The notes below the pieces were generated by a model. That model had not been told where the DNA came from and ran no database searches. It saw only the letters and a list, made by a program, of their open reading frames with translations. From assembly GCA_965249555.1 (NCBI GenBank), contig OZ252243.1:800001-864000 (forward strand): a stretch of 64,000 nucleotides of DNA. Reading direction: 5' to 3'. This DNA comes from Nitrosopumilus sp. GTDB taxonomy: Archaea; Thermoproteota; Nitrososphaeria; Nitrososphaerales; Nitrosopumilaceae. The stretch's first letter is position 1; each line of letters begins with the position of its first letter. The position numbers were made by a program, and so were the translations under genes. Of the stretch, positions 50,802 through 61,030 are shown one piece after another.

Positions 50802-51358
50802 ACTGGAATGCATTGGATGGTATGTCCAAATATCAGAACCAAATTAAAGATTAGCCAAGTTGTTAGAAACAAGAATGTTACAATTGAGAATGGAAGAAGT
50901 GCTTTGAGTTTTGTGTGTTCTCTGTTTTTTATAATCAAAACACCTCCTAATGATACAAGAACTAGTCCCAACTCAAGTGGTTGATGAGACCAAGATATCA
51001 ATCCATCAATTCCAAAGAGATCATGAGATAAAGAATCAGCAAAGCCTGAAATTAATTGAATTATAGAACCAACAATAACTAGTATGATTCCAGTCTTAAG
51101 GGATCTGTGAACTGATTTTCCAAATAAAAGAATGCAACCCATGAATGCAGCACAGCTAGTCATAGATACTCCTGTGTACACCATGATATGCTGAATGCTC
51201 CAGAAAAATTCTGGTTCCTTTTGAAGGTGAGATATGGCATCCCAGAGTCCTGCGGAGACTACTACAACAGAACCAGTTACTGCTAAAATTGAAATAAAGA
51301 ATACAAGAGTTGCAGGTTTTGCAAGTGTGGAATTTGTAATTCTTTGAATTAATTTCAT
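50765..51358 (-). CDS. polytopic membrane protein with two DxxxH...H motifs
   Basis: WDAISH...QH and ADSLSH...SH motifs. Confidence 0.7.
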   Translation of the reverse strand: MKLIQRITNSTLAKPATLVFFISILAVTGSVVVVSAGLWDAISHLQKEPEFFWSIQHIMVYTGVSMTSCAAFMGCILLFGKSVHRSLKTGIILVIVGSIIQLISGFADSLSHDLFGIDGLISWSHQPLELGLVLVSLGGVLIIKNREHTKLKALLPFSIVTFLFLTTWLIFNLVLIFGHTIQCIPVYEIFSSGCAIL

Positions 51359-51548
51359 TTTATTTCTACCATATCATTTTAGTAGGAAATATTGAAAGGT
51401 TATCAATTAGGAAAACTCAACTTTGTGGGTAATTTTGTCAATTAACTGAGACTTGAGCATAATGATTTACAAAAATAAAACCAAAACTTTTCTCTAACAA
51501 CAAAGCATTCTTTTCACAATCCTTGGATTCTCACTTCCAATTACACAG

Positions 51549-52828
51549 ACGTTATACAAAATCTTTTTCATATCTTGTGATGTATACCTACTGTTGGGCC
51601 TGAGAGTTGAATTATTACTGCCATGTACAAGGGCGTTACACAGACTAACTCAAAGTGAGCGGAAAACAAAATACCACATAGATGGCAAATGGGAGCATTC
51701 CGCTAGATCAGGCAATTTGATCAAAAAGGAGGTGATGGTATGATCAGCATAGGAATTAATATTCACAAGAAGAAATGTGTTGCAACAAAATAGGAATCCA
51801 GAAAGAAGCTAGAGCAGACAAGCTTTGATAATACCACAAATGGAATAATGGGTTTTATCAAACACGTCAAAAAGACATATGGCAATGACATACAGGCAGT
51901 GTGTGAGTCAACTGCAAACTATTGGATCAGACTACATGACACACTAGAGGACCATGGAATTGATACAATTCTTGCACATCCTGCAAAGACCAAGATAATT
52001 GCACAGGCAAAGCTAAAAAACGACAAACTTGATTCAGACGTATTGGCAGGACTTGCTAAGAGCAGACATGGTGTACAGCTCATTCGTACCAGAAAAATAC
52101 TATAGAGACTATACAGTCTGGTAAGAACCAGACTGAATCGCGTGCGAAATGTATCAAAACACAAAAACATGATTTATGCAATACTTGCAAAATATGATTA
52201 CACCCACAAAGACATTCTCGCAGAAAGGAGTACGATGGTTGCATGAAATTAATCTGATAGAATGGCAATGGATGCATATCTTGATACCATAGATATGACA
52301 CAAAAACAGATCAACACAATTGAGATAAAGATTGCAGTAATGAGGATGAGAAAACAAGACTACTAATGACCATTCCTGGAATAAACTATGTCACGGCATT
52401 GACAATAATTTCAGAGATAGTTGACATCAGCAGATTTGCATCAGCAGAAAAACTAGTCTCATATGCAGGACTTGCACCATCGCACAGGAATGCAGATGTG
52501 CACCGAGGAGGCGGAATAACAAAGAGGGGTTCTGCATGGTTACGTAACGCAATGGTAGAGGCTGCAAATACTACAGTACGATTTGATGAAAGAATGGGAT
52601 CATTCTATTTCAGAATTGCAAAGAGAAGAAAACAAAGGTGACAGCTGCAAGACCGGATGCTTGCAATAATCCGGGTATATGCTAACAAATTCTGAAAGTG
52701 TATCGTACACAAAATCATGAACTGACACAACGAAAGTATAAGATGCAAGGCATATCTGAGATGTCCTGATTCAGCAAAGCATGCTAGGAAGTGTCCTCAG
52801 TAGGGTTGGAGACGATTTCGTATGGGAG
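51549..52828 (+). mobile_element. IS110-family element (recombinase pseudogene ~51740-52769)
   Basis: GINIH, CEST, KNDKLD, IPGI and YAGLAP motifs across broken frames; AGGAGGTGA RBS; 2-bp AG core at both junctions. Confidence 0.9.
51598..51713 (+). ncRNA. putative IS110 bridge/seek RNA
   Basis: Closing stem GCCTGA/TCAGGC. Two stem-internal-loop arms hold segments matching the target (ATTATTACT, TTACACAG) and the donor (ATGGGAG). Confidence 0.75.
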
Positions 52829-54118
52829 TTATAATACACTGCCAACTGATACACCAACACGCAAATCAGCACGAATGATTGTACGTTCTCAAATCCTTTC
52901 ACTGGAACTGTTCTAATGCTAAACGTATCCTTGATTATTTCAAATAGTGCTTCAATTGATATTTTTCTCTGAGAATGTAATTTCCGACCAACTGCTGAAT
53001 TGTAAAACTCTATCAACTTTATTCTGTCTGGTGGCGTAGAATAGTATTTTTTGACTGGACAGATCAATCTCATGGCATTATTCTTAGTTGACTCGTATAG
53101 TTTAGAATCATCATATGCCGGATCACACCATATACTATTCATCAATCCAGAAAGTGACCCAATCAATTTCTCATATGGCTTACTGTCATGAACATTTGCA
53201 GCAGTTACACATGCAGATAATGGAACTAGCCTTTCCTGTACTACAACTCATGTGTAGTTTGTATCCATACATCCAACCCTTTGATTTGGAGAATCCCCAC
53301 AATTGGTAAATGATTCTTTTTGATGTCTGATTTGTGCCATACTGGACCTGAAGCTTTTAGCATTGAACTATCAACTGATGCTGATTCACTATTCACCAAT
53401 CCTTCTGAGACAAACAAATCTCCTACAGTGTTAACAATTTCATTGATTGGCAAGCATTGAAATCTTCTGTCAATTGTCCTTCTGTCAGGGATTTAGTCTG
53501 CAAACCTTGAGTAATTTGTCATTGGTACATTTGATTGAGAGAAAATAATGCAGTGTGTTGTCACTTGGAATTCGCATCCATGACTTTATGATGAATAACT
53601 GAACCATTAGAACAGTCGAATGGACATATGGTAATCCTCGTCTCACTGCATTCTCATACAGAGACAGTGTTCCAACCAGATACAAAACACCAATAAGAAA
53701 TGACTCACATAGAATCTTGCTAGGGATTTTTATTTGTTTTGTAATCATTTCAATGAACAAAACATAATGAGATCTTTGGCTTTTTCTATTTGAATAATTT
53801 GAGAAATCGGTTAAAAATGAGAATGGATTATGCCCATGTCTCAAGTAATATGTCAGAACTGGATAAATAGTGCAATTACTGTTTGACTAAATTAACGAAT
53901 TGCGGATCAAAAGCTAAAAAAATATATTTTATTTAATAATTTTTAGGCGATCAATTTTTTTATGTTGTAATTTTTAGTCAATATAAAAAAGGTTCTGGTG
54001 CAAAATGTGATCAGATCATCAAAATCCACTACATCTGTTTCATTCAATAAGAAAAATCTGATCGCTTTCACTATTTTATTATGATTACATTTAAAAAATC
54101 AACTTTTTAAAATACTAC

Positions 54119-59631: not shown

Positions 59632-60911
59632 CTCCCATACGAAATCGTCTCCAACCCTACTGAGGACACTTCCTAGCATGCTTTGCTGAATCAGGACATC
59701 TCAGATATGCCTTGCATCTTATACTTTCGTTGTGTCAGTTCATGATTTTGTGTACGATACACTTTCAGAATTTGTTAGCATATACCCGGATTATTGCAAG
59801 CATCCGGTCTTGCAGCTGTCACCTTTGTTTTCTTCTCTTTGCAATTCTGAAATAGAATGATCCCATTCTTTCATCAAATCGTACTGTAGTATTTGCAGCC
59901 TCTACCATTGCGTTACGTAACCATGCAGAACCCCTCTTTGTTATTCCGCCTCCTCGGTGCACATCTGCATTCCTGTGCGATGGTGCAAGTCCTGCATATG
60001 AGACTAGTTTTTCTGCTGATGCAAATCTGCTGATGTCAACTATCTCTGAAATTATTGTCAATGCCGTGACATAGTTTATTCCAGGAATGGTCATTAGTAG
60101 TCTTGTTTTCTCATCCTCATTACTGCAATCTTTATCTCAATTGTGTTGATCTGTTTTTGTGTCATATCTATGGTATCAAGATATGCATCCATTGCCATTC
60201 TATCAGATTAATTTCATGCAACCATCGTACTCCTTTCTGCGAGAATGTCTTTGTGGGTGTAATCATATTTTGCAAGTATTGCATAAATCATGTTTTTGTG
60301 TTTTGATACATTTCGCACGCGATTCAGTCTGGTTCTTACCAGACTGTATAGTCTCTATAGTATTTTTCTGGTACGAATGAGCTGTACACCATGTCTGCTC
60401 TTAGCAAGTCCTGCCAATACGTCTGAATCAAGTTTGTCGTTTTTTAGCTTTGCCTGTGCAATTATCTTGGTCTTTGCAGGATGTGCAAGAATTGTATCAA
60501 TTCCATGGTCCTCTAGTGTGTCATGTAGTCTGATCCAATAGTTTGCAGTTGACTCACACACTGCCTGTATGTCATTGCCATATGTCTTTTTGACGTGTTT
60601 GATAAAACCCATTATTCCATTTGTGGTATTATCAAAGCTTGTCTGCTCTAGCTTCTTTCTGGATTCCTATTTTGTTGCAACACATTTCTTCTTGTGAATA
60701 TTAATTCCTATGCTGATCATACCATCACCTCCTTTTTGATCAAATTGCCTGATCTAGCGGAATGCTCCCATTTGCCATCTATGTGGTATTTTGTTTTCCG
60801 CTCACTTTGAGTTAGTCTGTGTAACGCCCTTGTACATGGCAGTAATAATTCAACTCTCAGGCCCAACAGTAGGTATACATCACAAGATATGAAAAAGATT
60901 TTGTATAACGT
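59632..60911 (-). mobile_element. second IS110 copy, inverted (bridge-RNA-like region 60747-60862)
   Basis: Mirror image of 51549-52828; CT cores at 59632-33 and 60912-13. Confidence 0.9.
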
Positions 60912-61014
60912 CTGTGTAATTGGAAGTGAGAATCCAAGGATTGTGAAAAGAATGCTTTGTTGTTAGAGAAAAGTTTTGGTTTTATTTTTGTAAATCATTA
61001 TGCTCAAGTCTCAG
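60912..61014 (+). mobile_element. 3' end and terminal repeat of the DDE IS
   Basis: Encodes CVIGSENPRIVKRMLCC*, followed by ...TGCTCAAGTCTCAG and TTAA. Confidence 0.8.
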
Positions 61015-61030
61015 TTAACTATATTAGAAC

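Follow-up and report, generated by a model that had tools for sequence, protein, structure and literature searches.

How did a broken insertion sequence (IS) come to lie inside the transposase gene of another IS in an ammonia-oxidising archaeon, and was its landing site chosen by an RNA of its own kind? The question is raised by positions 51549-52828 (+ strand) of a 64,000-nt stretch of DNA, which is called the window here. We consider this segment very probably to be a fossil IS110-family IS of the IS1111 type, and this copy, or its progenitor, to have been moved by RNA-guided recombination. The window element is a real observation and a further example of a mechanism described in 2024. The host had been taken for an ammonia oxidiser from the window alone, and an archaeal amoA in the genome (2.23 Mb, a single contig) and relatives in the Nitrosopumilaceae agree with this.

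The element and its host gene

The features of the locus are given below in window coordinates.

51443-51548, - strand: 3' part of the host DDE IS, with the last 18 transposase codons and the IS end, delimited by BLAST against other DDE copies (intact copies end ...YYNCVIGSGNPRIVKRMLCC)
51540-51548, + strand: left target half ATTACAC and core AG (51547-51548), read directly from the sequence
51549-52828, + strand: the IS110-family element, IS1111 type, 1,280 bp, decayed
51554-51563, + strand: left subterminal inverted repeat ATACAAAATC, with a 5-nt extension ACGTT before the repeat (7 nt including the core)
51598-51713, + strand: core of the putative bridge/seek RNA, with closing stem P1, target arm (P2, P3) and donor arm (P4, P5)
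51609-51619, + strand: 5' strand of the target loop, GAATTATTACT, complementary to the top strand at the core and right flank
51636-51645, + strand: 3' strand of the target loop, TTACAC-AG, identical to left flank plus core, then a handshake-like AC
51665-51672, + strand: 5' strand of the donor loop, AACAAAAT, whose AAC (51665-51667) would pair discontiguously with left-end positions +3 to +5 (GTT)
51689-51697, + strand: 3' strand of the donor loop, ATGGG-AG, identical to right end plus core, then CA at the handshake position
51740-52769, + strand: recombinase pseudogene with several stops and frameshifts, first catalytic Asp changed to Asn (IGINIH)
52814-52828, + strand: right subterminal repeat GATTTCGTAT (52814-52823), 3-nt extension GGG and core copy AG (52827-52828)
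52829-53847, - strand: 5' part of the host DDE IS, with the right target half at 52829-52837
59632-61018, - strand: second copy of the element (59632-60911, 100% identical) with 107 bp of DDE IS tail (60912-61018)

At the left junction ...AATTACAC-AG is followed by ACGTTATAC, with which the element starts at 51549; at the right junction ...GTATGGG-AG, ending at 52828, is followed by TTATAATAC. The 2-bp core that had been noted at both junctions does stand at both, as AG (CT on the other strand). AG terminates all 26 left junctions of the element family in the genome, and the 36 right junctions start with AACC (11), ATTC (6), TATT (5), AATC (4) or other sequences (10). The left repeat of the other copies in the genome is ATACGAAATC. 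Recombinase fragments in the window match PF01548 (DEDD_Tnp_IS110; 2.7e-08) and PF02371 (Transposase_20; 2.7e-22), and this recombinase copy is inactivated, as had been supposed, with its reading frames broken in all three phases. The gene is preceded by a non-coding left end of 191 nt and followed by 59 nt. There were 49 BLAST matches to the element in the genome, eight of them full length with 94-100% identity; all eight full-length copies are pseudogenes, and the best one has two stops.

The host gene encodes a DDE_Tnp_1 transposase on the minus strand and belongs to an IS of about 1,125 bp; the insertion lies 18 codons from the gene end. Intact DDE ORFs of 355-357 aa, ending ...LAVYYNCVIGSGNPRIVKRMLCC, were found in five of the 13 full-length copies examined, and their C-termini bear out the view that the insertion splits YYN from CVIG. 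Among 27 copies of the DDE IS 3' end in the genome, nine are occupied by the left end of the element and 18 are empty. The original prediction had placed the empty site correctly in the DDE IS, but the exact sequence that it gave for this site occurs in none of the 18 empty copies: 12 read ACACAA (core AA, not AG), five read ACACAG/TTACAAT, and one has a deletion. A synonymous change from AAC to AAT at the insertion point, present in 5/5 intact DDE genes and 12/18 empty sites, turns the recombination core from AG to AA; the nine occupied sites have AG without exception. The change of the core could be an escape from targeting, or simply subfamily history.

The two copies in the window are inverted relative to each other and lie about 6.8 kb apart. 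The right end of the second copy (59632-60911) adjoins unique intergenic sequence, and the rest of the DDE IS is absent there; the second copy with its tail (59632-61018) points to a recent duplication or gene conversion and not to a second insertion. Contig joints that skip 1,280-1,283 nt were present in all four runs whose contigs were compared with 51300-53100, but they are uninformative on excision at the window locus, because the IS is multi-copy and the joints fit empty DDE copies elsewhere.

Structure of the left end

The proposed RNA structure rests on covariation and not on single-sequence folding, for thermodynamic folding of the left end as a single sequence was not better than that of shuffles (z = 0.23 and 0.32). 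The stems of the original prediction were all recovered in their places (GCCTGA 51598/TCAGGC 51708, GAGTT/AACTC, GCC/GGC and GCGGAA/TTCCGC), and when the left ends of homologues were folded and aligned, as it had proposed, five helices were backed by compensatory changes. In a MAFFT alignment of 18 left ends, 94.7% of the cells pair and 10 of the 25 pairs have changes on both sides; none of 500 shuffles did as well, and slid registers reached at most 42%. A covariance model built from this alignment gave, at a match threshold of E <= 0.001, 52 matches in 53 sources, and every one of the 52 lies upstream of a recombinase gene on the same strand. Among 48 distinct homologues, which were aligned as covariance-model matches and are fitted to that model, 95.8% of the cells pair, both-side changes occur in 19 of the 25 pairs and slid registers reach at most 41%. 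A scan of 51300-53000 against Rfam with E up to 10 matched no family; RAGATH-6 and Hatchet appeared below threshold only, both far under their gathering scores.

Guides of the window copy

Both motifs that had been picked out in the target loop hold. On the 5' side, ATTATTACT (51611-51619) matches the reverse complement of AG+TTATAAT at eight of nine positions, and on the 3' side TTACACAG (51636-51643), which had been tied to the right target, equals left flank plus core at eight of eight. Both loop matches were met with by chance at 151 of 400,000 random genomic sites (0.04%), where the 191-nt left end had to contain, at any position, an exact 8-mer and a 9-mer with no more than one mismatch. 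The target 3' guide is followed by AC, with which the left end of the element also begins. The 5' guide of the window copy carries two substitutions relative to the common TGAAT, and each of them improves the fit with the DDE site when the guide is read contiguously. This guide fits only if A pairs with T at +1; the register with an unpaired A, which fits most relatives, was tried for the window copy and gave a match of only 1/5. The guide pair of the window copy is predicted to specify the site 18 codons from the end of the DDE transposase gene.

In the donor loop, ATGGGAG at 51689-51695 had rightly been described as identical to the right end plus core, and the donor 3' strand is identical to the final 7 nt of the element in 28 of 31 cases, with four variants of the right end represented. 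The second donor guide had been declared unmatchable. This is no longer so, as the guide has been found at 51665-51672. Of 24 external loci, 21 have as the first three bases of the donor 5' strand the reverse complement of left-end positions +3 to +5, and six different triplets occur (0/20,000 permutations).

Covariation of guides and flanks among relatives

A near-complete ORF from another copy (P0001) found 34 genome loci, which belong to Nitrosopumilus, Nitrosotenuis, Nitrosopumilaceae, Thaumarchaeota, Nitrososphaera, one Bathyarchaeia and a further, more distant genome. With six intact proteins aligned as the query (A2), 437 metagenome relatives were found, of which 80 were kept. The element ends were set by the subterminal inverted repeat and were therefore independent of the loops. 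External loci with at least 8 nt of flank entered the covariation tests, and identical pairs of guide and flank 6-mers were counted once. L031, with two candidate right ends, was omitted from the right-flank test, and L032, identical to L062, did not enter the guide tests. The same applied to L026 and L042, for which the script did not find an exact repeat; their flanks, AACCC in L026 and GTTAC in L042, fit their guides in the alignment. Loci with an end off the contig were also left out (L025, L030, L033, L039, L041, L055, L057, L065, L066 and L083, the left side of L060 and the right side of L079).

In these other genomes the guides covary with the flanks, which is the pattern that the original prediction had looked for among homologues. 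The left guide (20 loci; the 5-6 bases before the core on the 3' strand) agreed with the flank at 89 of 117 positions, compared to 33.4 expected, and the right guide (21 loci; reverse complement of the right flank, tested over the five bases preceding the last two of the 5' strand) at 84 of 105, compared to 35.8 expected; 0/20,000 permutations were as good in either test. With one locus per distinct guide (16 each), the counts were 74/94 on the left and 62/80 on the right, again with 0/20,000 permutations. Poor left fits (1-2/5) came from L067, L068 and L073, which are distant metagenomic loci, and poor right fits in the tested register from L024, L063 and L064. Single external loci match at 7/7 to 9/9 positions at quite different sequences, such as TCTGTAG in L024, GACCGGCAG in L027, CGTAAGAG with GTAAACT in L034 and GCGCAC-CA in L069. 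Both registers of the 5' guide occur among the relatives, L058 fitting the form with the unpaired A and L064 the paired form.

ACT follows the core of the target 3' guide in 50 of 52 matches, the other two differing at the first or second position, and every left end listed begins with AC. Target and donor loop have the same core in 51 of 52 RNAs (AG/AG in 41, TG/TG in 10), and the 5' strands that end in the complement of the core have CT with AG (12) or CA with TG (4).

Two side observations were made among these loci. L031, from Nitrosopumilus, has two right-end-like sequences with different flanks downstream of one recombinase gene and may be a nested or tandem partial copy. TTSAC-AG-AACC, the commonest target type, often stands after CGATAAC in several genomes (L021, L022, L040 and L043; genome positions 665060 and 667305), which points to a short conserved motif or to another element's end.

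Guide diversity and targets within the genome

When 23 left ends were aligned, their variation clustered on both strands of the internal loop in arm 1, where five 5'-strand variants and six 3'-strand variants form 11 combinations. Among the seven distinct full-length copies, only two gap-free columns have three or more alleles, and these are element positions 90-91 in the 3' guide. Within this genome, the guides of a copy do not fit its own flanks better than those of other copies: on the left 34 of 54 positions agreed, compared to 32.3 expected, with 7,082 of 20,000 shuffles as good, and on the right 14 of 35, compared to 16.0 expected, which is not above the shuffled values. A left-end fragment at genome position 2069256 has the loops of the window copy but is located at CTTAACAG. 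The original prediction had staked itself on the same loops not lying at other sites; inside the genome they do, whereas among external homologues loops and targets covary. We infer that guides and flanks were scrambled among the copies by recombination between copies and by RNAs acting in trans.

As sets, the guides of the genome fit the recoverable empty sites of three targets. The first, ATATTGAC-AG-ATTCAATG, is a site within the gene for the recombinase of a second IS110 family; it fits TTTGAC-AG with TGAAT-A-C/U; copy L006 carries these guides and has its left junction at this site. The second family (genome 193302-194294, 709458-710444 and 282335-283327; locus L136) is 35% identical and has intact ORFs of 371-373 aa, with the target site in the C-terminal coding region. 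The second target, CGACTTGAT-AG-T-ATTCAAG, is in the middle of a repeat of about 260 bp and fits TTTGAT-AG with TGAAT-A-CU, contiguously at 8/8; copy L008 has both guides and both flanks of this site. The repeat is non-coding and MITE-like and occurs around 1882430-1882690 and in about 12 other places, and of the copies found seven are empty and five are occupied on the right side. The third target is the DDE site, which fits the guide pair of the window copy. The guide TGAAT-A-CU serves both AG/ATTCA and AG/T-ATTCA, and from these sequences we infer that the A before CU may be either unpaired or paired with T at +1. The description of the element as a hyperparasite of a DDE IS is therefore apt for the guide variant of the window but not for the family, which is also in two other repeats. 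With so many natural guide variants and recoverable empty sites in one genome, a data set on the rules of guiding is ready at hand.

The DDE IS is in its turn associated with the element. At seven loci (genome left-end coordinates 92149, 373195, 547111, 1498340, 1867481, 1913914 and 2109975), the 5' end of the DDE IS adjoins the left end of the element at base ~136, which falls within the donor arm of the RNA gene. At five of the seven the left flank is an inverted 103-bp DDE tail, and the DDE IS there therefore has an extension of about 240 bp and a spare terminal repeat. Of the five intact DDE transposase genes, four belong to such composites (with the ~240-bp extension). The fixed position of the DDE IS in the donor arm may be a result of retaliation or of capture. 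It is conceivable that the target loop of one IS110-family lineage, in at least 11 guide combinations, chases three repeats, that the DDE IS may have escaped, and that the genome records an arms race between IS; we regard this extended scenario as unlikely.

Alternative explanations

The window copy might owe its place to a duplication of the DDE IS or of a segment bearing the element, or to an RNA supplied in trans by another copy, and its guide match would then be partly inherited or coincidental. The two window copies are 100% identical over 1,280 bp and 107 bp of DDE tail, and therefore at least one of them arose by duplication; the scrambling of flanks and guides among copies and the composite junction common to five loci also agree with such a history. 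However, the copy at 51549 keeps both DDE halves in register and has the best two-sided guide match in the genome (8/8 and 8/9), and its private changes in the 5' guide point towards the DDE site. On balance, we find it rather doubtful that the copy reached its place in this way.

It might also be that the protein reads a short motif (TTNAY-AG) when the target is chosen, the likeness of loop and flank being incidental or a captured flank. Relatives with unrelated flanks (ACCGGC, CGTAAG, GTCTAA, CTATG-TG) carry matching loops, the donor guides covary with the element ends, and RNA guidance has been shown experimentally in members of the family (PMC11208160, PMC11187229). These facts make a motif read by the protein highly improbable, despite a TTNAYAG-like sequence in all 26 left flanks of the genome and the absence of copy-specific guide matching there. 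The left-end structure might also act mainly within the recombinase mRNA, as its 5' leader or a regulatory element, and not as a trans-acting guide. Its position would be in keeping with such a role, as a Shine-Dalgarno-like GGAGGTGAT and the start codon come directly after it; but there would be no need in a leader for loops that follow the flanking DNA and both ends of the element, and we give this role hardly any credence. RNA-guided recombination is the explanation that we keep.

Proposed mechanism

Under RNA-guided recombination, the left end would encode an RNA of roughly 115-140 nt with two internal loops. The 3' strand of the target loop (UUACAC-AG) would pair with the bottom strand, because its sequence equals left flank plus core, and the 5' strand (...UUAUUA-CU) would pair with the top strand at the core and right flank. 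The donor loop would do likewise at the circle junction, where AUGGG-AG matches the right end and AAC would pair with left-end positions +3 to +5. Strand exchange by the DEDD/serine recombinase would then take place at the 2-nt core, which is AG in the window element and TG in some relatives, and the circular form would be inserted without duplication beyond the core. The anatomy of the element, the covariation of its structure, the covariation of guides with DNA and the decay of the gene are observations. Production of the RNA, its binding to the recombinase and the chemistry of the reaction would follow what is known from IS621, ISEc11 and ISEc21.

Classification and comparison with known systems

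The intact homologue L024 reaches 253.7 bits against NCBIfam NF033542 'IS110 family RNA-guided transposase' (cut-off 140), matches PF01548 and PF02371, and in the PDB matches IS621 (E = 2.8e-12) and ISCro4. The lineage has the DEDD RuvC-like and Transposase_20 (Tnp) domains of the IS110 family, the window copy itself being broken. There is no duplication beyond the short core, as AG stands at both junctions and the empty sites of three targets were recovered, and the loops of the predicted ncRNA appear complementary to the target, and to the joined ends, on both strands.

In Siddiquee et al. 2024 (PMC11187229), IS1111 is defined by subterminal repeats with 7-bp and 3-bp extensions, a reversal of the guide order separates RNAs of the IS1111 type from those of the IS110 type, and an RNA region upstream is found in just 'a few' IS1111 members. 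Our elements have these ends: repeats of 8-14 bp in the 29 loci listed (10-14 bp in the homologues), within the range of about 7-17 bp for IS1111, and extensions of AG+ACGTT on the left and GGG on the right. The guide order is also that of IS1111, with the complement of the top strand 5' of the match to the bottom strand. The RNA gene is not downstream of the recombinase gene, as it is in IS1111, but upstream, in the 191 nt before the gene as opposed to the 59 nt after it. An upstream position goes with the IS110 group in Durrant et al. 2024 (PMC11208160), and in this the element agrees with the IS621-like IS110 group, from which its repeat length (repeats being absent or 2-3 bp in that group) and guide order depart. 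Judged by sequence, the element would be of the IS1111 type by its ends and guide order, with an unusual upstream RNA gene.

IS621 (PMC11208160; Hiraizumi et al. 2024, PMC11208158) shares with the window element an RNA at the left end with two loops and two guides in each, guides that overlap a 2-nt core (CT on the other strand), one discontiguous donor guide, two recombinase domains and handshake-like bases 3' of the 3' guides. The discontiguous guide of IS621 is its right donor guide (PMC11208160), and the ACT or AC after our target 3' guide probably corresponds, by analogy, to the handshake guides of IS621. The left guides of IS621, which read as the left target or the right end, occupy the 5' side of each loop (PMC11208160, PMC11208158), whereas here the guide that resembles left flank or right end occupies the 3' side; the subterminal repeats are 2-3 bp in IS621 but long here; and here the first core base varies (A/T) while the second (G) is fixed. 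The likening to IS621 in the original prediction is thus good for the loops and the 2-nt core, but not for the guide order and ends, which are of the IS1111 type. Reversed guide order relative to IS621 was tried as a novelty and dropped, as it was already described for IS1111 (PMC11187229).

By ends and guide order, the closest likeness is to ISEc11, ISKpn4 and ISPa11, the seekRNA elements of PMC11187229. They share long subterminal repeats, extensions of 7 bp on the left and 3 bp on the right, no duplication beyond the shared bases, the same guide order in the RNA and natural reprogramming among relatives; the window element differs from them in its upstream RNA region and archaeal host. ISEc21, as it is described there (PMC11187229), shares the upstream RNA and a programmed target that is a conserved stretch in the transposase gene of another IS. 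It differs in being bacterial, in its IS110-type guide order and in the lack of long subterminal repeats, and its target is the DDE catalytic codons of IS3-family genes, while that of the window element is near the C-terminus. An element of the IS110 type targeting a transposase gene is therefore already published (ISEc21, PMC11187229). Archaeal IS110 recombinases are known too, with 662 in 2,835 archaeal genomes. Our literature search found no paper linking a bridge RNA to Nitrosopumilus or ammonia-oxidising archaea, although the supplements of PMC11208160 and PMC11187229 may list the lineage.

The novelty of the window element is limited to its archaeal lineage, its mixed architecture and the guide diversity within one genome. 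IS4321 and IS5075, which are likewise of the IS1111 type and specialised on another mobile element, reportedly have the terminal repeats of Tn21-family transposons as their target and not a coding sequence. The intact relatives L024, L027, L031 and L034 are candidates for assays. The window element and its relatives would extend the sequence-level evidence for bridge/seek RNA guidance to ammonia-oxidising archaea, and because IS1111-type ends and guide order are here combined with an upstream RNA gene, the lineage is useful for relating the IS110 and IS1111 subgroups to each other.
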